The notes beneath the pieces were generated by a model. The model saw only the letters and a list, made by a program, of their open reading frames with translations, searched no databases and was not told the DNA's origin. The position numbers and the translations under genes were made by a program. From a virus: DNA of 64,000 bases. The stretch spans positions 46,289-110,288 of the IMG/VR virus record IMGVR_UViG_3300027973_000032. One strand, 5' to 3'. Positions 1,301 to 14,118 of this stretch are shown piece after piece; the first letter of the stretch is position 1; every line of letters begins with the position of its first letter.

Positions 1301-1490
1301 ATGAAAACAATCATTGCACTGGCCTTGGCATTGAACTGCTTGACCTCAATGAGCATGGCCTTAGATAAAGACAAATATTGCCCAATGGGTCAACAACGAG
1401 TGCTAGTGTCAGAATGGCATCGTACTGGCACAGGGCCTTGGCAACGAACTAGCTACTGGATTTGCCAATCATAATATTTAAGGTTAATAA

Positions 1491-1784
1491 ATGAAAATAA
1501 TGAGTGATACTGTACTATGCAAAGATTGTAAACATAGTTTTACACCTTGGCACGCTTGGCTTCAACCAAGTAAATATGCACTACATTGCCGAAAGACCTT
1601 GGTGGCTACCCATACAAATATAGACCCAGTTATTGGTGAGGTTGAAGTAAAATCCCATTACCAAACTTGTCAAACAAATAGACTACGTAGCTTTAAAGAC
1701 GAAACTTGTGGTCCAGATGGTCGAAACTGGGAACCAAAACGTCGTCAAGATCTTTTTAAATATATCAAACACGTGAGCACATAA
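1491..1784 (+). CDS. Cys-rich hypothetical protein
   Basis: CKDCKH...C...C...CGPDG pattern typical of small phage proteins. Confidence 0.7.
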   Translation: MKIMSDTVLCKDCKHSFTPWHAWLQPSKYALHCRKTLVATHTNIDPVIGEVEVKSHYQTCQTNRLRSFKDETCGPDGRNWEPKRRQDLFKYIKHVST

Positions 1785-1972
1785 TGAAAATAATGATTGA
1801 TCCCCAAAATGGTTGGGAATACGACTTTCCCAAAGAATACGATCCTGATCGTGATGGCACAGACTTCTTTGCTTGGCTACTAAGAGAAGGCTATCCACAA
1901 CATATGATCGACTATACTATTGAAATACACGGTGCTTTTAAATATCGTAGCTGGGTTTCAGAAAGAGACTAA
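1784..1972 (+). CDS. Hypothetical protein
   Basis: IDPxxGWxYxFPK-type motif; translationally coupled to the upstream ORF. Confidence 0.65.
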   Translation: MKIMIDPQNGWEYDFPKEYDPDRDGTDFFAWLLREGYPQHMIDYTIEIHGAFKYRSWVSERD

Positions 1973-1973
1973 C

Positions 1974-2345
1974 ATGGAAATTATTGAACCAATCGTCATG
2001 TGCGCCATAGTATTCATTGTTGGTTACATACTGGGCCAACATCATGCTATAGATAATATCACAGACAAACTCATAGAAGATCCAGAAGGTTTTGTTAATC
2101 TAATAAAGAAAGCTAAAGCCGCAGACACTGAAACATTGGAACTAAGCCGAGACAAAGGCGTTATCTACTGCTTTGGATCTAACAAAGGATTCCTAGCACA
2201 GGCTGAAGATCTCGACACATTGGCCCAACGTATACGAGAAGCCCTACCCGGCAAAAGCTATCTCATCCCTGCACAGAAAGACTTTACCACAGACGAACTT
2301 TATAATTTGGCAAAACTCCTACAGAAAAACGTTGACAAAGCTTAA
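1974..2345 (+). CDS. Hypothetical membrane-anchored protein
   Basis: ATG at 1974; N-terminal hydrophobic helix. Confidence 0.7.
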   Translation: MEIIEPIVMCAIVFIVGYILGQHHAIDNITDKLIEDPEGFVNLIKKAKAADTETLELSRDKGVIYCFGSNKGFLAQAEDLDTLAQRIREALPGKSYLIPAQKDFTTDELYNLAKLLQKNVDKA

Positions 2346-2360
2346 ACAAATTAGTATAAT
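2332..2360 (+). promoter_or_regulatory. Consensus sigma70 promoter
   Basis: TTGACA (2332), 17 nt, TATAAT (2355); AGGAG RBS before the ATG at 2382. Confidence 0.85.
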
Positions 2361-2381
2361 TGCTACTCACAGGAGAACTTT

Positions 2382-2654
2382 ATGAAATACTTTAACCCAG
2401 AAAGCAAGACCTACAAGGTCTTCTCAGCACTCTACAACGGCGAAACTCTCACACAGGCAGAAGCTACCAAGCGTTTCAGCGTTGGCAATCTCAGCGCAGA
2501 AGCCACACGCATTCGTCAAAACGGCTATGCTGTATATAGCACCCGTCGTCGGGCAGGTAACGGCGTTATGGTCACCGAATACACTTTGGGCAAACCAAGT
2601 CGTGAAATCGTGGCCTTAGGTTACAAAGCCAAGAGCATGGGTATTACTCTTTGA
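2382..2654 (+). CDS. Small basic winged-HTH-like DNA-binding protein
   Basis: GETLTQAEATKRFSVGNLSAEATRIRQNGYAV HTH-like pattern; has its own promoter and terminator. Confidence 0.7.
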   Translation: MKYFNPESKTYKVFSALYNGETLTQAEATKRFSVGNLSAEATRIRQNGYAVYSTRRRAGNGVMVTEYTLGKPSREIVALGYKAKSMGITL

Positions 2655-2676
2655 TACTTAATAAGTATTAGAGTAC

Positions 2677-2700
2677 AGGGGCGTACAGCCCCTTTTTTTT
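2677..2700 (+). terminator. Rho-independent terminator
   Basis: GGGGC-GTACA-GCCCC followed by T8. Confidence 0.8.
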
Positions 2701-2710
2701 AGACTAAACT

Positions 2711-3466
2711 ATGGCAATAAAAGTTTACTACCATATACACTGCACAGGCGATATTTACGGCGATCTCTTCCTCGTCGACGAACAACTTAAGGCCCTACAA
2801 TGGAGCCGACTACTATACTCAGCAGAAGTTAACTGCGTGATCACCGGCACTAATAGCTGGAACGTTTGGGAACTGGTGGATCGTACACTGGGTCGAGAAC
2901 GTAAACGCTGCGTTAAAACCATTGAACGCGTGGACATTGATCACGAAGAACTCTACGAAGGACGCACACTTCAACACCTCTGGCAAGATGCCAAACCAGA
3001 TGACGCCATATGCTATATACATACCAAAGGTATTAGCTACTTTATGGGTAATCGTAAGGTCAACGGCGAATTCAACGCTAGACACATTAAGGCTATCAAC
3101 GGCTGGCGACTTAAAATGGAACAGAAGATTCTCACTGAATGGCCACAAAGAGTTGCTCTGCTACCACAATGCGACACACAAGGCTGCTACTTTCGACAAG
3201 ATCCATTTTGGCACTACATGGGCAACTTTTGGTGGGCTAAGGGCAGTCATATCCGTAAATTGGCTAATCCCATAGAGTACACCGCCTTACCTTATCCTGG
3301 TGAACAATACGAAGAAACTAAACCAGCTAGAATGAAATACGAACAATGGCTATTCAGCAAGGAAGGCTATCACCTAAACTTAGAACCCTACATGGACTGG
3401 CCAAAAAGACAACCAGGCTATGCTGAAGTGTTTAATCCCTACGAAGACGACGTTAGCGAACCATGA
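2711..3466 (+). CDS. Putative glycosyltransferase-like protein, HTKG/NFWW paralog 1
   Basis: YYHI, YEGRTL, YIHTKG, GNFWW and YEQWL motifs shared with three neighbours. Confidence 0.6.
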   Translation: MAIKVYYHIHCTGDIYGDLFLVDEQLKALQWSRLLYSAEVNCVITGTNSWNVWELVDRTLGRERKRCVKTIERVDIDHEELYEGRTLQHLWQDAKPDDAICYIHTKGISYFMGNRKVNGEFNARHIKAINGWRLKMEQKILTEWPQRVALLPQCDTQGCYFRQDPFWHYMGNFWWAKGSHIRKLANPIEYTALPYPGEQYEETKPARMKYEQWLFSKEGYHLNLEPYMDWPKRQPGYAEVFNPYEDDVSEP

Positions 3467-4302
3467 ACAAACTATTCTACCACATATACACTAGCGAACA
3501 TCCCACTGTGGGACTGATGATGATAGATCAACAGATACGCAGAATGAAATCCAGTGGCCTATACTACAACGCTGAAATGAACTGCGTGATCACAGGCCCA
3601 CACTGTAAACAGGCAGAAGAATTAGTCAAACTACACGGCGGATTTCGAATCTTAGAAGTCACAGAACGAGACGATGAACAGATCTTCGAAGGACGCACAC
3701 TGCGCTATCTATACGAACAAACACTACCAGAAGATAAAGTCTGCTACATGCACACTAAGGGCATTAGCTACATAACTGCACAGAATCGTATCAACGGCTT
3801 TATTGCTCCACGTAACGTAAGAGCAGTGAATGGCTGGCGTCATGCCATGGAATACTACTGCATAGATGAATGGCAAACTAGAACTGAACATCTAGGCGTG
3901 GCCTGCGATACTGTAGGCATTATGCTGATCTTCCACCCTTTCTACATGTACGGCGGAAACTTTTGGTGGAGCATGGGCAGTCATATACGCACACTACCAC
4001 ATCCCTTAGAATGGAAGGGCAACGACTACGAACGCACAGGCGAAAACGCTGACCCAACTCCCGAACTGACCATGCTACGCATGAGACACGAACAATGGAT
4101 CTTTGCACAACGAGAAGGCTATTTTATGAGCCTGTTTAACATACTGGACTTGCCCAAAGACGATGAACATCATCTTTGCAGCAGCTTCTGGCTCTACGAA
4201 GATGACCTACTACCTCACGTGGTCAGAGAAAGAGCTCTACACAAAGGAGATGGAGCTCTACTCCAACTACTGAACTATCGCATACAACCTCCCCCTCAAT
4301 AA
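3463..4302 (+). CDS. Putative glycosyltransferase-like protein, HTKG/NFWW paralog 2
   Basis: FYHI, FEGRTL, YMHTKG, GNFWW, HEQWI. Confidence 0.6.
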   Translation: MNKLFYHIYTSEHPTVGLMMIDQQIRRMKSSGLYYNAEMNCVITGPHCKQAEELVKLHGGFRILEVTERDDEQIFEGRTLRYLYEQTLPEDKVCYMHTKGISYITAQNRINGFIAPRNVRAVNGWRHAMEYYCIDEWQTRTEHLGVACDTVGIMLIFHPFYMYGGNFWWSMGSHIRTLPHPLEWKGNDYERTGENADPTPELTMLRMRHEQWIFAQREGYFMSLFNILDLPKDDEHHLCSSFWLYEDDLLPHVVRERALHKGDGALLQLLNYRIQPPPQ

Positions 4303-4305
4303 ACT

Positions 4306-5064
4306 ATGATTAAAATATACTACCACATTTGGACAGCAAGAAACGTCCCAGTTAATCTCTTCCTCATAGACGATCAACTGAAAAGACTACAACACACAGG
4401 CCTCACAGAAGAAGGCGAAGTCTACTGCACTATCAGTGGCAATAATCCCTACTCAGCACTGGACCTATGCAAGGCACACCCTTGGCTTAACGTACTGGAA
4501 TGCGTGGAAGGTGACCCCAATATGGAGTACGAAGGGCGCACACTAAAATATCTATGGAGAGACACTCGACCAGAAGATCATGTGTTCTACTTCCATACTA
4601 AGGGACTGAGCTTTCTCAGCGGCGATAGAATATGGGGCGAACTGAATCAACAACTTAGACCACGTAATATCAAGGCACTGAGCAGCTGGCGTTTGGTCAT
4701 GGAGACTGAACTACTGGACAGCTGGATTTGGCGCAGACATCAACTTAACGAAGGTGCAGACACACTGGGCTGCTACTTCTTAGGAGATCCTTTCTATCAC
4801 TACATGGGCAACTTTTGGTGGGCCCGTGGCACACACATCCGTAAACTGCCAGATCCCTTAAACTTTGACATTGCTCCATACCCTGCTATGGCTCTAATAG
4901 AAACTAGCCCACTTAGAATCAAATACGAACAATGGCTATTCCGCGCACCAGATAGCTACTACGTGGGCGTGAGAGACTGGCCATTCCACCTTCAAGACAC
5001 TAAAGAACCTGGATATAGCCCAGGAATAAACCCCTACGAAGATGACTACTGGGACTTGAAATGA
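4306..5064 (+). CDS. Putative glycosyltransferase-like protein, HTKG/NFWW paralog 3
   Basis: YYHI, YEGRTL, YFHTKG, GNFWW, YEQWL. Confidence 0.6.
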   Translation: MIKIYYHIWTARNVPVNLFLIDDQLKRLQHTGLTEEGEVYCTISGNNPYSALDLCKAHPWLNVLECVEGDPNMEYEGRTLKYLWRDTRPEDHVFYFHTKGLSFLSGDRIWGELNQQLRPRNIKALSSWRLVMETELLDSWIWRRHQLNEGADTLGCYFLGDPFYHYMGNFWWARGTHIRKLPDPLNFDIAPYPAMALIETSPLRIKYEQWLFRAPDSYYVGVRDWPFHLQDTKEPGYSPGINPYEDDYWDLK

Positions 5065-5852
5065 TTAAACTATACTACCACATTTACACTAGCACTAATA
5101 AGATGATCAGCCAAATGCTGATTGATCAACAACTACGACGCATACGCAACGCTGGCATTAACCAACATAACACCCAAATGAACTGCGTGATCACAGGTCC
5201 ATGGTGGCAACCCGCTAAAGAACTGGTTGAACGCTTTGGTGGCTTCCGTATCTTAGAAACTAAGAACCAAGACGAAGAAGGCTTCTACGAAGGCCGCACA
5301 CTACGCTACATTTGGCAAGACGCAAAGATGGACGATGGTATCTGCTTTGTACACACTAAAGGTTCAGCTTACCTCAGCGGAGAGAAACACGTCAACGGAT
5401 GGAACCAACCCCGTAACATCACTGCTATAAACAGCTGGCGCTGGGCTATGGAATACTACACACTGGACCTGTGGCAGGATCGCATACACAACTTGAACAC
5501 AGCCACTGACACTGAAGGCATTATGATGTACCTAGACCCATTTTGGCACTATGCAGGTAACTTCTGGTGGGCTAAGGGCAGTCACATTAGACGACTACCA
5601 GACCCTACTAGAATGGAAGCACCCTACGGTGATAGAATGAACCCCCGCGCTTGGCTTATGATCAATAAGGGACATCATATGAACTACTTTGATTGCTTGA
5701 CTCAACCACGCAGCGATGGCCGTACTGGACCATTCCGCATGCACGAAGACGACTGCATGCCACACGTACTGGCTGAACGTAAGAGACTGACCCTTCTTAA
5801 AGATGCACTACGACGCAACGACGGCGAAGCAGTTGCTCGCTACAGTAGGTAA
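5061..5852 (+). CDS. Putative glycosyltransferase-like protein, HTKG/NFWW paralog 4
   Basis: YYHI, YEGRTL, FVHTKG, GNFWW; the EQW motif is replaced by PRAW. Confidence 0.6.
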   Translation: MIKLYYHIYTSTNKMISQMLIDQQLRRIRNAGINQHNTQMNCVITGPWWQPAKELVERFGGFRILETKNQDEEGFYEGRTLRYIWQDAKMDDGICFVHTKGSAYLSGEKHVNGWNQPRNITAINSWRWAMEYYTLDLWQDRIHNLNTATDTEGIMMYLDPFWHYAGNFWWAKGSHIRRLPDPTRMEAPYGDRMNPRAWLMINKGHHMNYFDCLTQPRSDGRTGPFRMHEDDCMPHVLAERKRLTLLKDALRRNDGEAVARYSR

Positions 5853-5859
5853 ATACTCA

Positions 5860-6090
5860 ATGAAAGACTTCGGCGAAATGATGATTGTTATGGGCATGAT
5901 GCAGGTCATTGAACAGGCCTACAAACTTAAACAACCTATCTCTTGGCGCACTGTATACAAAACACTGCGCTTAGATGAAAGCTTCTGGTCTGAAGACTAT
6001 AGCATAGACGAAGAAATTGTGATAAACAACGACGCCGAACTATACCTGATCAAGGCCACACTGGAAAGTAAATTTACTACTAAACATTAA
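5860..6090 (+). CDS. Hypothetical protein
   Basis: ATG at 5860, just after TAAATA. Confidence 0.55.
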   Translation: MKDFGEMMIVMGMMQVIEQAYKLKQPISWRTVYKTLRLDESFWSEDYSIDEEIVINNDAELYLIKATLESKFTTKH

Positions 6091-6091
6091 T

Positions 6092-6646
6092 ATGCAACTG
6101 GTCTATCCCTTAGATTCATTTGAATACGAACAGACTGAAATTAAACAGATGTTTCTAGACGATTGGGACTGGATTAAAAATACTCAAAAATATAATCATA
6201 TGGGCTCTGATTTACTCAGCGAGGACTTGATAGAAAAAAACTTCCCAATATTGACAAAAAATATTCGAAAATTAATGCACGAAGACGACGTCTTCACAGC
6301 GAGATTTTTTGCTACTAGACCCCATAGCTGCGGCGACGTACATATTGATATGAGAAAAGAAAGAACTTTGGTCAGAGACTGGAGCTTGAATTTACCCATC
6401 GAGAACTGTGATAACACATATCATGAATGGTTCGATACACACAACGACCTACATACGGAGTCAAAATATAACTCTTTGTTTTGGAGAAACTACACTGCTG
6501 GCACACTGATCCACAGCCACGAACTTACTGGACCTGCCATAATGAAAGTGTCAATTCCCCATAGGATTAATAATCCCCTAGACACTTTTAGATTGATACT
6601 GGGCATACGCACAGAAAGTAATAGCTTTAACTACCCTTTGGTCTAG
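6092..6646 (+). CDS. Putative 2OG-Fe(II) oxygenase / cupin-like protein
   Basis: HID (HxD)...SLNLPI...PHRINN...RLIL metal-triad spacing. Confidence 0.55.
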   Translation: MQLVYPLDSFEYEQTEIKQMFLDDWDWIKNTQKYNHMGSDLLSEDLIEKNFPILTKNIRKLMHEDDVFTARFFATRPHSCGDVHIDMRKERTLVRDWSLNLPIENCDNTYHEWFDTHNDLHTESKYNSLFWRNYTAGTLIHSHELTGPAIMKVSIPHRINNPLDTFRLILGIRTESNSFNYPLV

Positions 6647-6762
6647 CTGTGAGCCTTACTGGTCTAGAACTAATTGATACTTGATACTATTTGATCACTG
6701 ATCGAGTGTACAGAGAACTGCTTAACGGCATCTAACCAACTAGACTCTGTACAACTCCATAT

Positions 6763-6791
6763 ACTATACACGCCATAACTGACTAAGTCAA
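6763..6791 (-). promoter_or_regulatory. Leftward sigma70 promoter with no protein-sized ORF behind it
   Basis: On the - strand: TTGACT, 17 nt, TATAGT. Confidence 0.55.
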
Positions 6792-6810
6792 CTACTAATA
6801 CAGCCAAAAG

Positions 6811-6901
6811 AGCTAGCTGTGAGCCTTTGCATATACAGCATATACAAATGGTCTAGCTGTGAACCTTTGCATACACAACAAATACAAAAGGTCTAGCTGT
6901 G
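6811..6901. repeat. 40-bp tandem repeat (about 2.3 copies), with dispersed partial copies at 6640 and about 7518
   Basis: CTAGCTGTG starts at 6813, 6853 and 6893; also at 6643. GCTGTGAACC occurs near 7518. Confidence 0.85.
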
Positions 6902-6942
6902 GGTATTACACATACGCACACAAGCACACAGATAAATACACA

Positions 6943-7126
6943 CATGATGGACTACATACCTTTACTCGTGCTCGTACCCTTGGCACTCATAGTACTATAC
7001 CTAGTTGACTACTACTGGGATGAAGCCGAAGGACTGTTTACCCTCACGTACCTACTGGCCATACTGAGCATACTCATAGGCTGGACTCTGACAGCGATAC
7101 TAGACTATAACATTTTCCTACCATGA
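6943..7126 (+). CDS. Small two-TM membrane protein
   Basis: MMDYIPLLVLVPLALIVLYLV...LLAILSILIGW; start position approximate. Confidence 0.5.
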
Positions 7127-7579
7127 TCCTGATCCCCCACATACTTTTGGTCATAACACTACTGTTCCTAACCACATACTGGCGCATTAAAGAAAGTCTC
7201 CTTTGGAGTGAATGGGCTATATTCACTATACTACTACTAGGCCTACTGGCGGCCTTTGTACACGAAATTATACAAAACTTTTGAACCTACTGTGGACATG
7301 GTGGATCTTACTGTACAGAAAGATTCATAGAATCAACGTAGAACATGCTAGAACGCAAGGTGAGTATTTGTGCATAGCCAGTCTCCACCACAGTCCGCCC
7401 AAAATATTTCTACTGTAGATACAGTTTTGCAACCGTTCAAAACTGTCATTGGCCCAGAAACATTACACTTTTCCACACCATTCTACACCTTTTAACACCT
7501 TTATACGGTACTAGTAGGCTGTGAACCTAGTAGTCGAGGAGACTTATTGGGTTGGCCCGAGCCGTAGTAAATAACTAGT

Positions 7580-7774
7580 ATGTATACAGTACAGTTAGAC
7601 ACAGCCACTATAGAGGCGCACTTGGAGCAATTAGCTTGGTGTCAAAGCCAGCGTTGGGTTCCGGGTCGAGATTTTTGGTTTGTTGGGATCAAATTACCTT
7701 TTGTGCCGGTAGAATGGCATTTTCAGGATCAAAAGAAGGCTGTATGGTTTAGTTTGTATTGGACTTCAGTGTAG
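7580..7774 (+). CDS. Hypothetical protein
   Basis: TAAATA upstream; WC...W.F.D.K.A.WF.L.W pattern common in such phages. Confidence 0.65.
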   Translation: MYTVQLDTATIEAHLEQLAWCQSQRWVPGRDFWFVGIKLPFVPVEWHFQDQKKAVWFSLYWTSV

Positions 7775-7814
7775 TTGTTTCGTTCATAATAGTTATTGAA
7801 ATCATAATTAGGAG

Positions 7815-7938
7815 GTTCTGAAGGTTAGAACAGTCATTCAGTCCAGAACTATCGTACGAATCAGAACTATTCTGGAGACTAGAACGTTCTGAAGGCTAGA
7901 ACTATCATGCGGATCAGAACTATTCTGGATTTCAGAAC
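7815..7938. repeat. Phased AGAAC array with 17-18-bp period (iteron-like)
   Basis: AGAAC at 7827, 7845, 7863, 7881, 7898, 7916 and 7934, interleaved with TTCTG. Confidence 0.85.
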
Positions 7939-8094
7939 AATTGTCGCGGAAAAACAACGAAGGTGCAGGAAAACAACACCGGTTGACAGAATTCTCCTTT
8001 TCCAATCCAAACTCATTCTGGAATTCATAATGACCAAACCTGTTAGGCAGCCTCGCCGTCCACCCCCAGTATGCCTGTTCGAACACATGCTCAT

Positions 8095-8143
8095 ATTATA
8101 GCTGAATCACTGTGGGCCGTCAATAGTGTTGCAGATTCACAAC
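8095..8143 (-). promoter_or_regulatory. Leftward composite box promoter pointing into the repeat region
   Basis: On the - strand: GTTGTGAATCTGCAAC, ACTA, TTGACG, 17 nt, TATAAT. Confidence 0.8.
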
Positions 8144-8144
8144 A

Positions 8145-8193
8145 GTAGTGAAAAAACAACAGCATTGACGTAGCCCCCAACTGACACTATAAT
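8145..8193 (+). promoter_or_regulatory. Composite box promoter 1
   Basis: GTAG-N8-CAAC (degenerate), 4 nt, TTGACG, 17 nt, TATAAT. Confidence 0.8.
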
Positions 8194-8226
8194 AACAACA
8201 TGGCGACACAGACACAGGAGCACAAG

Positions 8227-8556
8227 ATGCAAGTCACAGCAAAGATTCTTCTCTTAGACCCAGAGTACATGGGCCAGTTCTACTTCAAACCTAACCCACG
8301 TGAGACTGCACGAGAGCTGTTGGCCAAGGACCTTTACACTGAGCAAGGCCAGTTCACGCTGAACGTCACTGACAGTGAAGACGCGGCGGAGTTCTTGTTC
8401 GATCTTACCAACAATCCCAGCAAGGATGACTTGCGGGCTGTACTGTACGGACGTGGTCGTTCGCTCAGTGTGGGCGACATTGTTGACGTAGACGGTGAGC
8501 TTTTGCTCTGTGCTAACACGGGATGGCAGCGTGTTGCATACGCACAACAGGCTTGA
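8227..8556 (+). CDS. Early hypothetical protein (YodL-like SLSVGDIV motif)
   Basis: GGAG RBS; RSLSVGDIV...GW; in-frame upstream ATG at 8200. Confidence 0.7.
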   Translation: MQVTAKILLLDPEYMGQFYFKPNPRETARELLAKDLYTEQGQFTLNVTDSEDAAEFLFDLTNNPSKDDLRAVLYGRGRSLSVGDIVDVDGELLLCANTGWQRVAYAQQA

Positions 8557-8581
8557 CGTAGGGCCGCAAAGGCCTTATACT
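8533..8581 (+). promoter_or_regulatory. Composite box promoter 2
   Basis: GTTGCATACGCACAAC, AGGC, TTGACG, 17 nt, TATACT. Confidence 0.85.
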
Positions 8582-8610
8582 AAGAACATGGACACAAAGG
8601 AGCGAACGAT

Positions 8611-8814
8611 ATGATGGCAGGATTTAGTACTATGGCCAGTTTGGCGGCCAGTCGTGTGCGGCTATTAATGCAACAGACGGACATGGAACGTCCAGCTGAT
8701 TTGATTGCAGATATTATGCACTACTGTAAGGCAGAGGGCATTGAGTTTGATGCTGAAGTCAATGTGGCCGAATTGTACGTGTCAGAAGAAGAAGGATATG
8801 ATGATGCAAATTGA
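8611..8814 (+). CDS. Early hypothetical protein
   Basis: GGAG RBS; DLIADIMHYC motif. Confidence 0.7.
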   Translation: MMAGFSTMASLAASRVRLLMQQTDMERPADLIADIMHYCKAEGIEFDAEVNVAELYVSEEEGYDDAN

Positions 8815-9019
8815 TGGCCTAACAGATGAGCAATACGAGATTGCCGAAACTCTTTGGAACTGTGAAACAGAAGACGAAGTTAGGGAAGTCATTGACCAAA
8901 TTGGCAGTGAAGCATATAGTGTATACCAATTGATGGTGGCCGCACACTTTGATGAGAATTGTACTGATGTCAGTGAAGCGGCGGAGTATTTAAATTCAAT
9001 TAGGGGATGTTATGAGTAA
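8804..9019 (+). CDS. Early acidic hypothetical protein
   Basis: GAAGGA RBS; MQIDGLTDEQ. Confidence 0.65.
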   Translation: MQIDGLTDEQYEIAETLWNCETEDEVREVIDQIGSEAYSVYQLMVAAHFDENCTDVSEAAEYLNSIRGCYE

Positions 9020-9272
9020 GCTTGCATTCATTGGTAGGCCTTGGGTTGCATTTGATGCAGCCAATGCTAATCATCGTCAACAGTTTGCACAATTCCAACG
9101 TTTGGGTACTTGGGGTAAGTGTCCAGTTCGTTTTATTATTTCAGATGATCACGGCGACTTAATCACTATGATACAGCGACGACTTATTGAGTATTACATC
9201 AATCAGGAGTTTGGTCGCAGTGAGTTCCTCCGTCGTACAAATACAACGGCTGTTGACACAAAGACAGCCTGA
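9012..9272 (+). CDS. Early hypothetical protein
   Basis: RPWVAFDA...WGKCPVRF; GGGG RBS. Confidence 0.7.
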   Translation: MSKLAFIGRPWVAFDAANANHRQQFAQFQRLGTWGKCPVRFIISDDHGDLITMIQRRLIEYYINQEFGRSEFLRRTNTTAVDTKTA

Positions 9273-9281
9273 CGTTATACT
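9232..9281 (+). promoter_or_regulatory. Composite box promoter 3
   Basis: GTCG-N8-CAAC, 5 nt, TTGACA, 17 nt, TATACT. Confidence 0.8.
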
Positions 9282-9311
9282 ATTGAAACAGTAACGCAAC
9301 GGAGCAAAGAT

Positions 9312-9596
9312 ATGTGGACCACAGACAATCAACGTGAACTGAGTGCGGCACTTGACCTCATGTATGAGGACCAAGGAGCCCAATTCACTTCAGGCTATGC
9401 TAACAGCTTGGCAGTAGAGATGTTGAACTCCTTGCCCAAACGCCGGCAAAAAGAATTCATCAAACAGGTACAGACCTTCAATGGTCGTCAGCTGGTCAAA
9501 GTAAAGCATCTGTTGACTGGTGCTGAGGTAGAGATCCGTAGGAGTGAGCGTGGTACCTGTGTTGACCCCAGCACGGAACGGTATCACACTATGTGA
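9312..9596 (+). CDS. Early hypothetical protein
   Basis: GGAG RBS; C-terminal DPSTERYHTM. Confidence 0.75.
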   Translation: MWTTDNQRELSAALDLMYEDQGAQFTSGYANSLAVEMLNSLPKRRQKEFIKQVQTFNGRQLVKVKHLLTGAEVEIRRSERGTCVDPSTERYHTM

Positions 9597-9597
9597 T

Positions 9598-9646
9598 GTT
9601 GTATGCATACAACGGCCTAGACAAACTGGGCCGTTGAAGTTATACT
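9598..9646 (+). promoter_or_regulatory. Composite box promoter 4
   Basis: GTTGTATGCATACAAC, GGCC, TAGACA, 17 nt, TATACT. Confidence 0.85.
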
Positions 9647-9677
9647 AATGAAACAGTAACGCAACGGAGCAACAAAG

Positions 9678-9911
9678 ATGGCAAATTCCAGATTCCCAAA
9701 CATGAGCTATTGTATGTGTGAGAATACAGTAGCGGCCCTAGTCCAGATTATTGAGCACATGGACGAGGATCCTGAGAACTTCCTGCAAGACTTGAGCATG
9801 ACGGAATTGAATTCGTTCAATCGTTTATACGAGCTCTGCAAAGAGTTTCGTAGGACTGCGGACTTTGTTGCTGAAATTGCCGATGAACTTGCATTATCAA
9901 CTGAGGAGTAA
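9678..9911 (+). CDS. Early hypothetical protein
   Basis: GGAG RBS; NMSYCxxENT motif. Confidence 0.75.
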   Translation: MANSRFPNMSYCMCENTVAALVQIIEHMDEDPENFLQDLSMTELNSFNRLYELCKEFRRTADFVAEIADELALSTEE

Positions 9912-9916
9912 TTAGC

Positions 9917-10111
9917 ATGAACTTGACATATAAAGATCTCAAAGACTTTTTAGAAACTCTTACTGCCGAGCAATTGGCCTGTAATGTGTCTGTATATACT
10001 GGAGACACTGACGAAGCCTATCCTGTATTTGCCGCTGGGTTTAATACTAAAGAGGAAATGGGCGAAGAGTTAGATACATTAGATCCTGGCCATCCTATTC
10101 TATTGTTTTAA
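9917..10111 (+). CDS. Early hypothetical protein
   Basis: GAGGAG RBS. Confidence 0.7.
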   Translation: MNLTYKDLKDFLETLTAEQLACNVSVYTGDTDEAYPVFAAGFNTKEEMGEELDTLDPGHPILLF

Positions 10112-10123
10112 GGAGTAATTAGC

Positions 10124-10417
10124 ATGAACGCAGATCAAATTGCCAAATCCATTCGTTTCACGCCCTGGACCAATGACGACCTTACCAAATTCGTTGATGC
10201 TGTCAAGTATGCGCGAGCCCAATTGGTTCGTAATAACATTAGGGAATTCGTTGAAGGCGATGCTGTTCGTTTTAACAGTCGTAAACACGGCCTTATTGGT
10301 GGCATTGTAGAGCATGTGGCAATTAAGTATGTCACAGTCCGTAGTCCAGTAGGCTTATTCCGTGTGCCAGCTAACATGCTGACACGGCGTGAACAACCAA
10401 TGGTTGCCTTTGCCTAA
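10124..10417 (+). CDS. Early hypothetical protein, SH3-like C-terminus
   Basis: AGGAG RBS; same GGAGTAATTAGCATGAAC start context as the previous ORF. Confidence 0.7.
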   Translation: MNADQIAKSIRFTPWTNDDLTKFVDAVKYARAQLVRNNIREFVEGDAVRFNSRKHGLIGGIVEHVAIKYVTVRSPVGLFRVPANMLTRREQPMVAFA

Positions 10418-10419
10418 TT

Positions 10420-10468
10420 GTTGTAAGAACGCAACGGGCTAGACACACTGGCCCAACGATAGTATACT
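10420..10468 (+). promoter_or_regulatory. Composite box promoter 5
   Basis: GTTGTAAGAACGCAAC, GGGC, TAGACA, 17 nt, TATACT. Confidence 0.85.
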
Positions 10469-10497
10469 AGTGAAACAGTAACGCAACGGAGCACGTG

Positions 10498-10662
10498 ATG
10501 AAGAAAGGCATTTACCTTACAGTAGAGCAGACAGTAGAGATTCTCAGTAACACAGATTCGTTTGTGTTGGAAGAGATCTTAGAGCGATTGGTTGAGAGTG
10601 ATCCAGGCACTGCCTACGTGATTCAAACCATTCTCAATAACTTGGAAAAGGAAATGGCATGA
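10498..10662 (+). CDS. Early hypothetical protein (54 aa, not in ORF track)
   Basis: GGAG RBS; MKKGIYLTVEQ...LEKEMA*. Confidence 0.65.
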   Translation: MKKGIYLTVEQTVEILSNTDSFVLEEILERLVESDPGTAYVIQTILNNLEKEMA

Positions 10663-10750
10663 GCGGTGACAAAGGTGATCGCATGGTAGCCATTGCAATG
10701 GCTGCATGTTTTGCTGTTCTTACTTGTTTGACTATTAAAGGATATCTATA

Positions 10751-11227
10751 ATGGGTACTCGTAGCCGCATTGGTGTTAAGGTCAATGGTGTATACCTCAG
10801 CGTATATTGTCATTGGGATGGTTATGCAGAACATAACGGTGCAATCCTTATGGCTCACTACAATGATCAGGCCCGGGTTGAAGAGCTTGTATGCATGGGC
10901 GATATGAGCACGCTAGGCAAAGACATTGGTGAGAAGCATGGCTTTAGCAGCCGTGACATGGATATCCCATACGAGAAGTTTGAAGAACTCTATGGCGATA
11001 TGTGTACCTTTTACGGACGTGATCGAGACGAAACTGATGTAGGCTTTAAGACTGCTGCCACTGTTAAAGACTTCCTTGACCAATGTGAAAGCTGTGGTGC
11101 TGAATACTACTACATCTTCAACAATGGTGAATGGCTATATGGTAGCCTACATGAACGTGACGACGAGTACTATACGTTCGTTTCGTTGCGTACGGTATTT
11201 GCCAAGAAAGAAAGGGAAGCAGCATGA
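10751..11227 (+). CDS. Conserved phage hypothetical protein
   Basis: MGTRSRIG...YCHWDGY...EYYYIF motif. Confidence 0.8.
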   Translation: MGTRSRIGVKVNGVYLSVYCHWDGYAEHNGAILMAHYNDQARVEELVCMGDMSTLGKDIGEKHGFSSRDMDIPYEKFEELYGDMCTFYGRDRDETDVGFKTAATVKDFLDQCESCGAEYYYIFNNGEWLYGSLHERDDEYYTFVSLRTVFAKKEREAA

Positions 11228-11373
11228 ACTCAGCACAAACAGTAGAAGTCATTGTGCGTCTGTATATTGAAAAGGATGCAGACGTCAATGAAGTATTGCA
11301 AGAGATGGATTACAGTTTCAAGTATCCAGGCATTCTAGCCACAGAGATTGTGGATGTGAACACAGAGATTTGA
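11224..11373 (+). CDS. Early hypothetical protein (49 aa, not in ORF track)
   Basis: ATGA overlap; MNSAQTVEV...EMDYSF...VNTEI*. Confidence 0.6.
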   Translation: MNSAQTVEVIVRLYIEKDADVNEVLQEMDYSFKYPGILATEIVDVNTEI

Positions 11374-11375
11374 CT

Positions 11376-11424
11376 GTTGTACTCTTACAACAGAGTTGAC
11401 AGGGCGTGGGGTAGGCTATATAAT
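11376..11424 (+). promoter_or_regulatory. Composite box promoter 6
   Basis: GTTGTACTCTTACAAC, AGAG, TTGACA, 17 nt, TATAAT. Confidence 0.9.
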
Positions 11425-11457
11425 ATTGAAACTGTAACAAAGAGTTGGAGCAAATAG

Positions 11458-12333
11458 ATGCCTAAGATGATCACTATGGAGACCATGCAGTTAAAAAAAG
11501 CACCCGTTCGCACAGAGAGCCTTGCACAAGAACCAAGTAAGAAGGTTCTCAAAGAGACTGATGACCAAATCAAAAGTCGTCTACGTGAACGTTTCCAAGT
11601 ACTTGAAGACATGACTCGTGCCGTAAAGAAAGGCCAAGTACGAGCAATGATTGTAAGTGGTCCACCTGGAGTGGGCAAGAGCTTTGGTGTTGAAGCTGTA
11701 TTAAGTAAACACGACACAATGGCCAATATCGCTGGCAATGAAAAGCTCAAAAAGTATGAAGTAGTCAAAGGTGCAATGAGTGCATTGGGTCTCTACAAGA
11801 AGCTGTTTGAGTTTAGTGGCACAAAGAATATCCTTGTGTTCGATGACTGTGATAGTGTATTGTTAGATGACTTGTCGCTGAACATTCTCAAAGCAGCATT
11901 GGACAGTGGCAAGAAGCGTATGATTCACTGGAATACGGAGAGTCATGCATTGAATAGAGATGGCATTCCAGACAGCTTTGAGTTTAAAGGTGGTGCAATC
12001 TTTATCACCAATATCAAGTTTGACAATGTAAAGAGTCGCAAACTGCGTGACCATTTAGAAGCATTGGAGAGCCGTTGCCATTATTTGGACCTGACCATTG
12101 ACACTGATCGTGAGAAGATCTTACGTATTAGACAGATCATTGAAGATGGCATGTTAGATGAGTATGAGTTTGGTGATGATGGACGTGAAGCCGTTATTCA
12201 CTTCATTGACACTCACAAGACTGAATTGCGTGAGTTGTCATTGCGTATGGTATTAAAGATTGCAGATCTCAAAGCATCGTTCCCAGACCGTTGGGAGAAT
12301 GTTGCAAAGATGACTTGTATGCGTCGTAATTAA
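11458..12333 (+). CDS. AAA+ family ATPase
   Basis: Walker A GPPGVGKS, Walker B LVFDDCD, sensor IFITN, arginine finger ALESR. Confidence 0.85.
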   Translation: MPKMITMETMQLKKAPVRTESLAQEPSKKVLKETDDQIKSRLRERFQVLEDMTRAVKKGQVRAMIVSGPPGVGKSFGVEAVLSKHDTMANIAGNEKLKKYEVVKGAMSALGLYKKLFEFSGTKNILVFDDCDSVLLDDLSLNILKAALDSGKKRMIHWNTESHALNRDGIPDSFEFKGGAIFITNIKFDNVKSRKLRDHLEALESRCHYLDLTIDTDREKILRIRQIIEDGMLDEYEFGDDGREAVIHFIDTHKTELRELSLRMVLKIADLKASFPDRWENVAKMTCMRRN

Positions 12334-12339
12334 TTCCCG

Positions 12340-12398
12340 TCAAAAACTCGTCGCTCCCGAGTTTTTGAATCCCCCGTCGCTCCCGGGGGATTTTTTTT
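12340..12398 (+). terminator. Twin hairpins; the second is a Rho-independent terminator
   Basis: CAAAAACTCG/CGAGTTTTTG and AATCCCCCG/CGGGGGATT plus a T run; both loops are TCGCTCC. Confidence 0.8.
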
Positions 12399-12399
12399 G

Positions 12400-12448
12400 G
12401 TTGCATAGAAACAACACCATTGACTGAACTACTCAAAGGCACTATACT
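12400..12448 (+). promoter_or_regulatory. Composite box promoter 7
   Basis: GTTGCATAGAAACAAC, ACCA, TTGACT, 17 nt, TATACT. Confidence 0.85.
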
Positions 12449-12481
12449 AAGAACATGGACAAAACGAAACTGGAGTACAAG

Positions 12482-12724
12482 ATGGCACGTAAGCAAACCA
12501 ACTACCTTTTGGAACTCATCGACAGCGGCATGCTCAGTGCTGATGACGTCGTTACTATGGCACTCAAGTACATGAGTGAAGACGAAGTCGCTGACATGAT
12601 GCGGGTTAACGACATCCTTGTTGAAGACGATGAAGAGTTTGGGGACGACGATGATCAGGCAGAAGAATGGCACGACAGCGTCAGCGAGTCACAAGAATGG
12701 CACGACTACGACGAAGATTGTTGA
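12482..12724 (+). CDS. Early acidic hypothetical protein
   Basis: GGAG RBS; YMSEDEVADM; in-frame upstream ATG at 12455. Confidence 0.75.
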   Translation: MARKQTNYLLELIDSGMLSADDVVTMALKYMSEDEVADMMRVNDILVEDDEEFGDDDDQAEEWHDSVSESQEWHDYDEDC

Positions 12725-12725
12725 T

Positions 12726-12774
12726 GTTGTAAGCATACAACGGGCTTGCTCAAAAGGCCCGTTGGAGTTATACT
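12726..12774 (+). promoter_or_regulatory. Composite box promoter 8
   Basis: GTTGTAAGCATACAAC, GGGC, TTGCTC, 17 nt, TATACT. Confidence 0.85.
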
Positions 12775-12801
12775 AAGAGCATGGACACACAGGAGCACAA
12801 G

Positions 12802-12957
12802 ATGAAGACAGACAAAGCACAACAGGCCGTAATCCAACTGCTTAAGAGCAAGTTGGCTCGGGAAGACGAAGCAACGGTAAAGGCTGCTTTCTTTAACGTG
12901 TTCAAAGACATTGATCAGAAGTTGGCTCGTGTACTGTGGCTGGAGGCAAAGGTATGA
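12802..12957 (+). CDS. Early hypothetical protein (51 aa, not in ORF track)
   Basis: AGGAG RBS; MKTDKAQQAV...WLEAKV*. Confidence 0.65.
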   Translation: MKTDKAQQAVIQLLKSKLAREDEATVKAAFFNVFKDIDQKLARVLWLEAKV

Positions 12958-13094
12958 CCGCACAAGAATTGATTGACTTGTTGACGAAGTTAGATCCCAA
13001 TAAAGAGATACTGATCTATGATGGATCGTGGGATCAAAACAAGTCAATCAGCGAAGTAGAAGTTAACGAAGACGGCGACGTCGTTATTTGGTAA
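12954..13094 (+). CDS. Early hypothetical protein (46 aa, not in ORF track)
   Basis: GGAGG RBS and ATGA overlap; MTAQELIDLL...DVVIW*. Confidence 0.65.
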   Translation: MTAQELIDLLTKLDPNKEILIYDGSWDQNKSISEVEVNEDGDVVIW

Positions 13095-13104
13095 GGAGAA
13101 CATA

Positions 13105-13308
13105 ATGGCACGAATGAAAGAACTTTACGAAGATGTTAGGGAAATGTTCGAACAGGGCCTTAGCGATGCAGCCATTGCCTATGCCACTGGTCAACCCATT
13201 GAATTGATACAAGACTGCACGGCGCAGTTCATTGACGAAGATGAAGAAGGCTTTGACTTCGACCAAGTGGCTGCGGATGACTTTTCCTTCGACGAAATAG
13301 AGTATTAA
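13105..13308 (+). CDS. Early acidic protein, possible HTH
   Basis: AAGGAG RBS; GLSDAAIAYATGQPIELI. Confidence 0.7.
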   Translation: MARMKELYEDVREMFEQGLSDAAIAYATGQPIELIQDCTAQFIDEDEEGFDFDQVAADDFSFDEIEY

Positions 13309-13350
13309 AAAAACAACAGGCTTGCTCAAACTGCCTGTTGATAGTATACT
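13302..13350 (+). promoter_or_regulatory. Composite box promoter 9
   Basis: Degenerate left half-site, CAAC, AGGC, TTGCTC, 17 nt, TATACT. Confidence 0.8.
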
Positions 13351-13377
13351 AAGAACATGGCAACACAGGAGCACAAG

Positions 13378-13593
13378 ATGGGGTACAAGGTGGTAGCAGA
13401 CAAGTACCAAATGGACATGATGCGTGAGAAATACGGCCCACGCAAAGGTCTGGAAGGTCCCTTCAACTTCAGTGGCCGTGTTCTTTACTACGATGTCCGA
13501 GAAGGCTCCTACTACGACCCACGTACAGACTTCTACGTGGCTCAGGACGAAATGACGTCAATCCACAACCAACTACTGGACAAGATGCGATGA
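13378..13593 (+). CDS. Early hypothetical protein
   Basis: GLEGPF..GRVLYYD..EG.YYDP..DFY; in-frame upstream ATG at 13357. Confidence 0.75.
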   Translation: MGYKVVADKYQMDMMREKYGPRKGLEGPFNFSGRVLYYDVREGSYYDPRTDFYVAQDEMTSIHNQLLDKMR

Positions 13594-13829
13594 ACTGGAA
13601 CAAAGAAGGCCAACAGGTTGCTGGAGTGTACTTGGGTGCCTACACCGTCACTGGTGTGGTTCAAAGCAGCCGTGTCAAATACGGCGGCAAGGTCCAACAC
13701 CGCGTCCTGCTAGACAAGCCCGTTATGGTGTTTGGCCGTGAGGCAGAGGAACTCCTGTTGGACGACGAAGAACTGTTCACCAAACCCCGTAAGGGCATGA
13801 TGGATGTTGTATTTGAACAACAGGCTTGA
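13590..13829 (+). CDS. Early hypothetical protein
   Basis: G.V.SSRVKYGG.VQH motif; ATGA overlap. Confidence 0.75.
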   Translation: MNWNKEGQQVAGVYLGAYTVTGVVQSSRVKYGGKVQHRVLLDKPVMVFGREAEELLLDDEELFTKPRKGMMDVVFEQQA

Positions 13830-13854
13830 CGATTTGAGCAGCCGACGTTATACT
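13806..13854 (+). promoter_or_regulatory. Composite box promoter 10
   Basis: GTTGTATTTGAACAAC, AGGC, TTGACG, 17 nt, TATACT. Confidence 0.85.
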
Positions 13855-14108: not shown

Positions 14109-14118
14109 GGAGAATACA

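Follow-up and report, generated by a model that had tools for sequence, protein, structure and literature searches.

T4-like phages are among the most abundant viruses of lakes and oceans and, to our knowledge, their replication origins are largely unmapped, T4 itself excepted. Iteron origins (oriλ and those of plasmids R6K, P1, and pSC101) are characterized by direct repeats of 17-22 bp with internal dyad symmetry and by an A+T-rich patch, and the primer-RNA origin of pBR322/ColE1 depends on transcription and has a DnaA box downstream of the primer promoter. In T4, oriE combines an early promoter with evenly spaced 12-nt repeats of unproven role, and R-loop priming has its precedent in the same phage (PMC3016281); in the T4 record, the primer RNA of oriE is annotated as complementary to the transcript of gene 5. 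At oriF (uvsY) and oriG (gene 34), which have a MotA-dependent middle promoter and, immediately after it, an A+T-rich unwinding element, the transcript from this promoter is proposed to remain hybridised and to prime one leading strand. Promoter-early stem-loops (PeSLs) of T4-type hyperplastic regions (Arbiol et al. 2010, PMC2839356) are shuffling cassettes in which strong sigma70-like promoters with a stem-loop or palindrome precede many small early genes. In T5, a 1.2-kb untranslated and repeat-filled stretch called Repeat Region 3, which has paired DnaA boxes and a bend and lies beside the pre-early genes, has been proposed as an injection-stop signal (iss) (Davison 2020, bioRxiv 10.1101/866236).

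Here we compare with these systems a locus in a 64,000-nt stretch of viral DNA (the window). The window is part of a single 110-kb contig (G000), ~31% of the roughly 320-kb genome of a T4-like jumbo phage that encodes a DnaB-like helicase and a primase; a Gp23 match (E 1e-81) marks its relatives as T4-type, and Gp23 was found in two of them that carry the element described below (G006 and G007). In this uncultured phage, positions 7300-8200 of the window form the central part of a non-coding hub that is conserved and essentially single-copy. The hub has no second copy in G000 and borders an early promoter-cassette region of PeSL type. Searching cultured phages with the hub region (blastn) gave no match, and the first cassette gene or a DUF8361 paralogue, used as queries, retrieved no relatives from IMG/VR. 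A sequence-only reading of the window had proposed a primer-RNA origin at this place; the promoter, the G-rich RNA start, and the repeat array that it invoked all held up, and its skew argument and its analogy with ColE1 did not. We consider a replication origin at the hub plausible and unproven. The specific version that we favor, in which transcription would activate the hub as an origin of the T4 oriE/oriF kind and the initiator-site module would be swappable, has in our judgment a little less than an even chance of being correct.

The hub is headed by a predicted leftward early promoter of sigma70 type (8095..8123, - strand), with a -35 TTGACG at 8123-8118 and a -10 TATAAT at 8100-8095. 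This TTGACG-17-TATAAT arrangement agrees with the consensus at 11 of 12 positions and would start RNA near 8088. Back to back with it is the first rightward cassette promoter (8145..8193, + strand), composed of a half-degenerate box at 8145-8160 and TTGACG-17-TATAAT at 8165-8193, which would drive the gene at 8200-8556. Four nucleotides upstream of the leftward -35 is a 16-bp palindrome, GTTGTGAATCTGCAAC (given also as GTTGCAGATTCACAAC; 8128..8143), in the same box-to-promoter geometry as in the rightward cassette promoters. The palindrome GTTGY-N6-RCAAC occurs 14 times, all within 8128-17896 of the window. A rightward -35-like hexamer or close variant was counted within a few nucleotides after 13 of them (among these thirteen, the copy at 17881-17896 has no recognisable hexamer), and the 14th is the box of the leftward promoter. 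Close relatives keep the palindrome at that promoter with paired changes, as GTGGC-N6-GCCAC. The box may serve as an operator or form the stem-loop in a cassette of PeSL type. A strong sigma70-like promoter with a palindrome, recurring between the small early ORFs of a T4-type genome, is what would be expected of PeSLs, and the leftward promoter is a PeSL-type unit turned round. PeSLs precede ORFs and are shuffled, whereas the hub unit precedes no ORF and is fixed, with a conserved non-coding element, at the edge of the array. Behind the element's promoter at 13 loci, strong promoters of opposite sense number 91 vs. three of the same sense, and in 10-11 of 13 informative loci (e.g., G005 and G006) the element borders the early promoter-cassette array and is directed away from it. 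In G005 and G006 a promoter precedes the element in the same position, and a strict pattern finds one there in at least 69 of 105 family members. The leftward box promoter of the sequence-only reading is real and conserved in relatives, and it has no protein product; neither of the - strand ORFs (71 and 82 aa) is conserved.

What this promoter would transcribe first is a conserved element of 48 nt (8048..8095, - strand). A 3-bp covarying stem (8088-8085 with 8074-8071) closes the loop GUUCGAACAG (8084-8075) and is followed by the core CUGGGGGUGGACGGCGAG (8069-8052), an 18-nt tract of the form CUGGGGRUGGACGGCGAG that is invariant in more than 100 related contigs. Phage and metagenome contigs yielded 111 distinct copies of the element. 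All three stem pairs covary; pair 2 is GC in 61 copies, UA in 18, AU in 18, and CG in 13, and is 99% Watson-Crick. Because G.U pairs outnumber A.C pairs in the stem by 10:1, the transcribed-sense strand is the folding strand. The loop contains UUCGA, which reads from its sequence as the T-loop pentamer. Pairing beyond the 3-bp stem was absent from the RNAalifold consensus of 14 or 105 sequences, and a 3' helix for the core was rejected since pairings seen in single sequences were not general. The element is not coding, because the linker inside it varies out of frame (4, 5, or 6 nt among copies); an MDGE... mini-ORF was also discarded, its frames and lengths not being conserved. A tRNA or tmRNA reading failed as well: ARAGORN and cmscan gave no match, a permuted tmRNA or tRNA half did not fit, and the Rfam 15 covariance models (E<=1) detected only three tRNAs in 6000-19000 and nothing at 7300-8200. 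The element had no blastn match among 50,697 records of cultured phages, T4 included, and 0 matches in bacterial genomes, and because of this last absence we rejected a host tRNA/tmRNA-derived attachment core. It is single in G000, and its covariance model recovered no further copies in 1.4 Mb of related loci. An apparent clustering at contig ends, hinted at by short loci, disappeared on record coordinates. Whatever its function, the element is an undescribed and highly conserved non-coding feature. Its core is also the G-rich tract with which the transcript had been said to begin; the leftward RNA is G-rich over about its first 50 nt (skew +0.54 in the core and +0.21 in the next 30 nt).

The features of the element give substance to a serious rival, which we nevertheless rate somewhat below the origin: that the hub makes an early non-coding RNA and has nothing to do with replication. 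Transcription from the leftward promoter would give a regulatory RNA, and its conserved 5' element (a T-loop-like hairpin and an 18-nt single-stranded tract) would be read by a conserved host or phage factor, with the repeat arrays as operators or roadblocks that tune leftward transcription. Such an RNA might work in trans (small RNA or decoy), in cis by a nut/put-like effect on RNA polymerase, or as an early antisense ("anti-late") transcript. The covariation of the stem and the excess of G.U pairs point to structure at the level of RNA or of a displaced strand, and the T-loop pentamer in the loop fits such a locus, but the first 149 nt of the leftward RNA fold no better than shuffled sequences (z +0.83) and no consensus structure extends past the stem. 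G006 has a second copy of the element, located inside the cassette array and followed only by a hairpin and the next promoter. It has no repeat array, which counts against an origin and means that the element has a role independent of the array; L106, L162, and L183 resemble it as self-contained units of promoter, element, and hairpin without a binding array. A terminator-like hairpin lies within 140 nt in the RNA sense in 24 of 102 loci, and this quarter of the family likewise speaks against an origin; however, such sites are no commoner than on the opposite strand (25 of 102). No general terminator intervenes on the way of the leftward transcript to the repeat array. A nut/put-like role has no genes to read through to leftward, in the window or in G005, and the RNA-locus explanation leaves unaccounted for the up to 11 phased DnaA boxes, the arrays found at one locus only, and the phased bend after the element.

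The antisense variant of this rival would have its targets to the left of the hub. All genes left of the hub are on the + strand, so that the leftward RNA is antisense to them. The stretch had been thought free of genes, but it contains one for a Trp-rich protein of 64 aa (7580..7774, + strand), and a transcript that reached 7505 would be antisense to this real gene. Purifying selection is seen in its ratios of synonymous to non-synonymous codon differences, which are 11:2, 11:2, and 9:3 in three of four diverged close relatives and 14:14 in the fourth (L163). The protein has no Pfam or PHROG match and no homology with a small ORF at the same place in L085. Together with small membrane, holin-like proteins to the left, it would be what the RNA acts on; one left neighbor is weakly holin-like (PF16079, E 0.01).

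At the other extreme, the hub might have no dedicated function and be a decaying PeSL cassette junction, in which a stray leftward promoter and remnants of shuffled cassettes lie beside a compositionally foreign island. The stretch does contain a decayed rightward cassette promoter (7943..7988, + strand), convergent with the leftward promoter, with near-boxes at 7943-7958 and 7962-7977, a -35 TTGACA at 7983-7988, and no usable -10. Its near-boxes are the two degenerate boxes that the sequence-only reading had placed on the path of the leftward transcript; each has one mismatch, and in the close relatives L129 and L190 one of the two is a perfect GTTGC-N6-RCAAC. PeSL regions are recombination hot spots (PMC2839356), and the left flank differs between the window and the near-identical L208. 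Decay is, however, incompatible with the conservation of the element, its promoter, its placement, and the phased array across phages of ~40-58% G+C, and this explanation is therefore largely refuted; we give it hardly any credence.

Downstream of the element, the leftward transcript would run into an array of AGAAC repeats with an 18-bp period (7814..7943). The array is present as had been described, with seven units at 7827-7934 spaced by 18, 18, 18, 17, 18, and 18 bp, and it includes several dyads (CAGAAC-TA-TTCTG, AGAACGTTCT, ACAATTGT) and a higher-order 71/53-bp duplication. AGAAC/GTTCT occurs nine times in one 500-bp bin vs. a G000 mean of 1.0 (sd 1.2), and GAGTAT occurs 11 times in one bin of G006 vs. 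a mean of 0.24; the array motif is at one place per genome. In close relatives the period is kept while the motif drifts in pairs (CATAA..TTATG, CAGAA..TTCTG), and L212 gains repeat units. The array folds better than shuffled sequences (z -2.97 on the - strand and -1.85 on the +). Across the family, the 350 nt that follow the element are enriched 33-fold in AGAAY-N0-3-RTTCT dyads (0.66 per kb vs. 0.02 in the background and 0 upstream). Between the array and the 64-aa gene is an A+T-rich patch of 38 bp (7775..7812, 76% A+T) that ends in AGGAGG without a start codon. Seven direct repeats of 18 bp with dyads beside such a patch are the arrangement of an iteron origin, and the DnaA boxes that relatives have downstream of the promoter (see below) recall ColE1. 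Compared with iteron origins, however, no O/Rep-type initiator gene was recognised that overlaps or adjoins the array, and the array motif differs between close relatives. The neighboring ORFs belong to no Pfam or PHROG family, and the lack of a recognised initiator gene beside the hub is a point against an origin. The proposed analogy with ColE1 proved weak: there is no long folded RNA II (the +0.83 given above) and no active antisense RNA I, the convergent promoter being the one without a -10.

The predicted DnaA-box arrays of relatives, at the homologous position, are the strongest origin-type evidence. Counted as matches to TTATCCACA with <=1 mismatch, DnaA boxes have a density of 3.37 per kb over the first 300 nt past the element, compared with 0.16 per kb upstream of it and a background of 0.28. 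In this stretch 17 of ~100 lineages have 2-11 boxes, mostly 11 bp apart, and other lineages, the window's included, have AGAAY-N0-3-RTTCT dyads instead. G000 has no DnaA-box cluster anywhere, an observation that tells against an origin, and its hub has one box with one mismatch (7469). DnaA boxes near promoters may, moreover, serve regulation or titration, which is a further reservation about an origin. On a second rival reading, the hub would be a docking or titration site whose arrays recruit or soak up host DnaA and, elsewhere, another host DNA-binding protein (at the AGAAC dyads), the purpose being to shut off host initiation, position phage DNA, or sense the state of the host, with replication not started there. 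In number and 11-bp phasing the DnaA-box arrays are like datA or oriC, and since G000, G006, and G011 showed no DnaA domain IV encoded by the phage itself, host DnaA would be the reader. Yet the window's phage is without a DnaA-box array, the invariant transcribed element is given no role, and the motifs turn over rapidly even among close relatives, as would be expected of a phage protein that co-evolves with them rather than of a conserved host factor. We regard docking or titration as improbable.

An origin at the hub could work as follows. The early promoter, directed leftward and away from the cassettes, would transcribe the 48-nt element, and transcription would then enter the array, whose short repeats look like protein sites and differ by lineage. 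An RNA-DNA hybrid would be seeded by the G-rich 5' part of the transcript, and the promoter-made R-loop would be the leading-strand primer, as in oriF/oriG. The array, bound by host DnaA or by some protein that reads AGAAC dyads, would open the duplex or hold it open and help to load the phage DnaB-type helicase and primase, and the palindromic box would couple firing of the hub to the early programme. The initiator-site module would differ by lineage, with host DnaA boxes in some and private dyad iterons (AGAAC) in others. It is a more doubtful proposition that aquatic T4-like jumbo phages share an unrecognised and widespread class of transcription-primed origin, with the element as its start signal and an interchangeable initiator-site module downstream.

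The closest T4 counterpart is oriE, which like the hub belongs to a T4-type phage and has an early sigma70-type promoter that needs no phage factor (for the hub, as predicted), an RNA antisense to the surrounding gene block, and evenly spaced short direct repeats without a demonstrated role. In the hub these are 18-bp units containing dyads, and T4 oriE has no counterpart of the invariant element. The oriE RNA encodes RepEA and RepEB, whereas the - strand ORFs of the hub are not conserved and have no similarity to RepEA; and oriE is inside the late gene 5, whereas the hub is at the edge of an early cassette region. With oriF and oriG the hub shares, besides the proposed priming by a promoter-driven transcript, a location near a change in transcription pattern or composition. 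It differs from them in its early-type promoter, its G-rich RNA, and the 42-46% G+C of the first ~100 nt (46% in 8000-8099 and 42% in 7900-7999, with 58% in the element itself). No A+T-rich unwinding element directly follows the promoter, the sole A+T-rich patch being ~280 nt downstream, and this also weighs against an origin. The hub is nonetheless a concrete, sequence-defined origin candidate, and the invariant 18-mer is a marker by which it can be found in any metagenome. That one locus has DnaA boxes in certain lineages but private repeats elsewhere amounts to a natural experiment, making testable how replication starts in such phages and whether they borrow the host initiator.

Resemblance to T5 Repeat Region 3 raises another alternative, in which the hub would be a genome end, the boundary of a terminal repeat, or an injection-stop region like that of T5. 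The hub shares the outward features of the T5 region: ~1 kb of untranslated DNA with repeats, palindromes, and a bend, a position beside the genes first transcribed by host polymerase, and, in its relatives, paired DnaA boxes. The T5 region, however, is in a terminal repeat at a fixed end, whereas the hub is internal in all long contigs and belongs to a T4-type and presumably permuted genome; T4 genomes are circularly permuted and have no fixed ends (PMC3016281). It is 54 kb into G000, at 37 kb of 142 kb in G005, at 119.7 kb of 322.5 kb in G006 (complete), at 229 of 332 kb in G007, and at 106 of 148 kb in G008. The end repeat of G006 is only a 99-bp assembly overlap, and the hub is single-copy in G000. 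The genome end that the sequence-only reading had offered as its alternative is, given these five long contigs, very unlikely.

The argument from base skew fared differently from the rest of the origin reading. The hand counts are exact (20 C and 4 G in 7441-7500; 4 C and 14 G in 7741-7800), and the change from C-rich to G-rich with + strand genes on both sides is real; it is not one clean switch, as 8000-8299 is C-rich again. By kilobase, GC skew is -0.11 in 6001-7000, 0.00 in 7001-8000, and +0.08 to +0.19 in 8001-12000. As an origin signal the switch was not borne out, its source being coding composition: skew is -0.34 at codon position 3 in the C-rich zone vs. -0.09 in the cassettes and +0.07 vs. 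+0.35 at position 1, and in non-coding DNA it is -0.08 on either side. The C-rich zone is an island of about 1000-7500 in the window, to the left of which skew is positive again, and the switch is the right edge of this 6.5-kb A+C-rich gene island. It is absent at the homologous place in G005 and G006. A genome-scale skew minimum at the hub, suggested earlier as a check, is not found in complete G006, where the global extremes are at ~35 and ~300 kb, at changes of strand between gene blocks, and the hub is at neither; this missing inflection, too, goes against an origin. In G000, which is ~31% complete, a whole-genome minimum at 7.5 kb cannot be established, and we rejected whole-record skew as an origin test because this contig is partial and skew tracks gene modules. 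The skew switch has no part in the origin reading.

The C-rich count at 7441-7500, exact as it is, has its own source in a phased repeat of ACACYTTT with a period of 10-11 bp (7462..7508), one unit of which is the relaxed-consensus DnaA box TTTTCCACA at 7469. Low-affinity DnaA sites were considered for this array and discarded, as a single unit fits the relaxed consensus. A phased A-tract/GTGTG array comes after the repeat array, and the same phased CACACTTTT/AAAAGTGTGA array is present in the hubs of G005, L085, L121, L125, and L132. Close by, at 7518..7528 (+ strand), is the motif GCTGTGAACCT, the fourth copy of a family whose others are at 6646, 6816, and 6856, and repeated motifs of the CCCCGCTG type occupy the same relative place in G005, L085, and G006.

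The leftward promoter proposed in the sequence-only reading is borne out: it lies at 8123-8095 on the minus strand (TTGACG-17-TATAAT, 11 of 12 consensus positions), and the palindrome GTTGTGAATCTGCAAC (8143-8128) stands 4 nt upstream of its -35. This palindrome is one of 14 copies of the box GTTGY-N6-RCAAC in the record, all of them inside window 8128-17896; 13 lie a few nucleotides ahead of a rightward -35-like hexamer or near variant (counting the box at 17881-17896, which has no recognisable -35-like hexamer), and the fourteenth serves the leftward promoter. The box, first described as an operator, could just as well form the stem-loop of a PeSL-type cassette (PMC2839356). The two degenerate boxes noticed at about 7943 and 7962 are also present (7943-7958 and 7962-7977), each one base off the consensus, and one of the two is perfect in close relatives; they are followed by TTGACA at 7983-7988 without a -10, and thus represent a decayed rightward cassette promoter. 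The cassette array of the related phage contig G005 likewise opens with a back-to-back promoter pair.

Immediately after the leftward promoter, G005 and the window share some 40 nt of nearly identical sequence. An 18-mer from this stretch identifies 15 genuine loci in IMG/VR, and a 27-nt pattern matches over 119 lake, estuary and ocean metagenome contigs, representing 111 distinct sequences; there were zero matches in 185,579 bacterial and archaeal genomes and in 50,697 cultured-phage records, and no Rfam family corresponds to it. Read in the sense of the leftward transcript, the conserved 48-nt element comprises a 3-bp stem around a 10-nt loop (GUUCGAACAG), a linker of 4-6 nt and an invariant core, CUGGGGRUGGACGGCGAG. 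The stem covaries at pair 1 (CG 41, GC 38, UG 8), pair 2 (GC 61, UA 18, AU 18, CG 13; 99% Watson-Crick) and pair 3 (UA 68, AU 29), and G.U pairs outnumber A.C pairs 10 to 1, so folding occurs in the strand that has the RNA's sequence (either the RNA or the displaced non-template DNA strand). By a strict pattern, at least 69 of 105 elements have a sigma70-type promoter in front, its -10 lying 0-50 nt from the hairpin, and the transcript start is G-rich over about 50 nt. Because linker lengths are out of frame and downstream frames are lost, the element is not coding, in agreement with the earlier view that the leftward transcript has no credible ORF. No structure beyond the hairpin is shared across the copies, and the first 149 nt of the RNA fold no better than shuffles (z +0.83); therefore, the 18-mer is probably read as sequence. 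The covarying hairpin and its T-loop-like loop suit an RNA that functions in its own right, and the main rival to the origin reading discussed below is that the locus makes an early antisense or regulatory RNA.

The placement of the element is similarly constrained. In the 13 loci flanked by at least 3 kb in each direction, 91 strong promoters behind the element's promoter point in the opposite sense and 3 in the same sense, and few strong promoters lie ahead of it; thus, the element sits at the edge of an early cassette array, pointing away. The record under study (G000) has one copy and the complete relative G006 has two, 13.8 kb apart and divergent: a canonical leftward copy at 119.66 kb, and a rightward copy at 133.5 kb within the array (L105:5494-5541; record 133,466-133,606), followed by a hairpin and, 20 nt on, the next cassette promoter. 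The same variant as this second copy also occurs at loci L106, L162 and L183.

The most telling result is what lies downstream of the element. DnaA boxes (TTATCCACA, allowing at most one mismatch) have a density of 3.37 per kb over the 300 nt that follow the element, compared with 0.16 upstream of it and 0.28 in the remainder of the loci. Seventeen loci carry 2-11 boxes, mostly as same-sense runs at 11-bp spacing that often open with a pair in opposite orientation; in L125, L121, L133, L132 and L175, arrays of 5-11 boxes start 17-90 nt after the element. In L175, an A+T-rich 30-mer (TTTAACATAATATAA..TTATGCGTA) occurs twice between DnaA boxes. The corresponding position in other lineages is occupied by different repeats confined to one locus, including GAGTAT in G006 (11 in one 500-bp bin vs a mean of 0.24), AGTAAGTACTTACT palindromes, TGCGAAT/ATTCGCA, CCCCTGCGAG (12 copies at an exact 10-bp period in L103:10880-10980, 230-330 nt downstream of the element) and AGAAY-N0-3-RTTCT dyads. 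The dyads, the type found in G000, occur at 0.66 per kb downstream and 0.02 in the background, with none upstream. The AGAAC array reported previously is confirmed, its seven copies being spaced 18, 18, 18, 17, 18 and 18 bp apart, with 9 AGAAC/GTTCT in one 500-bp bin vs 1.0 +/- 1.2 genome-wide. In G000's closest relatives the 18-bp period is constant and the motif drifts, often remaining symmetrical within the unit (CAGAA..TTCTG, CATAA..TTATG), and the array of L212 has additional units.

The RNA sense has no excess of terminator-like hairpins: within 140 nt of the core, 24/102 loci have one in that sense and 25/102 on the opposite strand. Transcription should therefore enter the array in most lineages. 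None of G000, G006 or the related contig G011 encodes a DnaA DNA-binding domain, so the host's DnaA would read the boxes. Promoter-adjacent DnaA boxes can be regulatory or titrating, and a docking or titration hub for host proteins ranks next after the main rival.

Further on, a phased 10-11-bp AAAAGTGTGA/TCACACTTTT array is found in G000, G005, L085, L121, L125 and L132, and a short motif of the CCCCGCTG/GCTGTGAACC type is present in three or four copies. In the window, GGTCTAGCTGTGARCCT occurs four times (6646-6866 and 7518-7528), with a 40-bp tandem at 6805-6901; at the same relative place, G005, L085 and G006 have three or four copies of CCCCGCTG(TG/CTA/AGACG). These motifs may be their own class of promoter or site. 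A metagenome twin of the locus, L208, is identical from ~7340 rightward; on its left side (compared with window 7296-7340), four copies of AACGTAGAAC replace the window's two AGAAC copies (7340, 7350) and the gene is different, which indicates a recombination breakpoint within the region.

The notion of a stretch without genes is contradicted by a Trp-rich ORF of 64 aa (7580-7774, +), which is retained in five close metagenomic relatives and for which no family was found. Codon comparison with four diverged relatives gives synonymous to non-synonymous differences of 11:2, 11:2, 9:3 and 14:14, and the ratio of 11:2 indicates purifying selection. Lying between the phased ACAC and AGAAC arrays, its product is a candidate reader of one of them. 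A leftward RNA extending to 7505 would be antisense to this ORF. To its left are two small, overlapping membrane-protein genes (6941-7284, +), the second weakly holin-like (PF16079, E 0.01); at the equivalent location, immediately ahead of the element, G005 and G006 have a hydrophobic ORF of 23-24 aa.

The window comprises bases 46289-110288 of one virus contig of 110,288 bp, whose genes include ribonucleotide reductase, collagen-like tail fibres, primase and a DnaB-like helicase with hundreds of IMG/VR contig relatives at ~70% identity. CheckV completeness is 29-39% for the 100-145 kb contigs of the group and 31% for G000. A T4-type Gp23 capsid protein (E 1e-81) is found in each of two element-bearing relatives, G006 (322,512 bp, 100% complete) and G007 (331,570 bp, 93%). 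G000 thus represents roughly a third of the genome of a T4-like jumbo phage, and whole-genome statements cannot be made from it.

An origin was first argued from a switch from C-rich to G-rich sequence near 7505. The hand counts of C and G were exact and the switch is real at the kilobase scale, but its meaning as an origin signal does not hold. The C-rich sequence forms a 6.5-kb island (~1000-7500), to the left of which skew is positive again, and this island is made up mainly of four tandem paralogues (2711-5852, +; 251, 279, 252 and 263 aa, with 40-46% identity) that share invariant EGRTL, HTKG and GNFWW motifs. These have no match in the copy of Pfam-A used, PHROGs or PDB; the ESM Atlas groups them with viral DUF8361 proteins of glycosyltransferase-like fold. 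It is these paralogues that form the A+C-rich island creating the switch. The difference resides in coding sequence, island vs cassette genes (-0.34 vs -0.09 at codon position 3; +0.07 vs +0.35 at position 1), and the non-coding segments either side of 7505 both have a skew of -0.08. The C-rich 60-mer is an ACACYTTT repeat phased at 10-11 bp, and the G-rich 60-mer is the 3' end of the Trp-rich gene plus a T-rich spacer. Neither G005 nor G006 changes sign at the homologous place. The predicted genome-scale inflection was checked in the complete G006, where cumulative skew peaks near 35 kb and is lowest near 300 kb, where gene blocks switch strand; its hub, at 119.7 kb, shows a small local dip only, at the start of a + strand cassette block. 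The sequence-only reading had named a missing genome-scale inflection as a refutation, and on that count the skew argument fails.

The primer-RNA origin is nevertheless retained as the leading explanation, on the new grounds of hub architecture and T4 precedents. The hub combines an early promoter, a conserved G-rich transcript start, a lineage-specific array of phased putative protein sites (often DnaA boxes), a phased bend, and a position at one locus per genome on the early region border, as expected of a transcription-activated origin. In T4, a promoter-made R-loop primes one leading strand at oriF and oriG, and oriE relies on an early promoter and contains direct repeats at even spacing, whose role is unproven (PMC3016281). 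In the T4 record, the oriE primer RNA is annotated as complementary to the gene 5 transcript; it is antisense to its neighbours, as the hub's leftward RNA would be. Against an origin, an A+T-rich unwinding element is absent after the leftward promoter, G000 has neither DnaA boxes nor a recognisable initiator, and the second G006 copy shows that the element can occur without an array. Outwardly, the hub resembles the proposed injection-stop region of T5 (bioRxiv 10.1101/866236); such a region, or the genome end previously offered as the alternative, is unlikely because element loci are internal in all long contigs, the relatives are T4-type, and the 99-bp repeat of G006 is an assembly overlap.

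Elsewhere in the window, genes for tRNA-Met, tRNA-Leu(UAA) and tRNA-Arg(UCU) lie within the early cassette array (15254-15499, +). About 20 kb at 30000-50000 (-) has ~30% G+C, compared with ~40-47% in the remaining record. Radical-SAM-like and carbamoyltransferase-like genes occur in this segment, apparently a cluster of sugar or modification genes whose composition is foreign.
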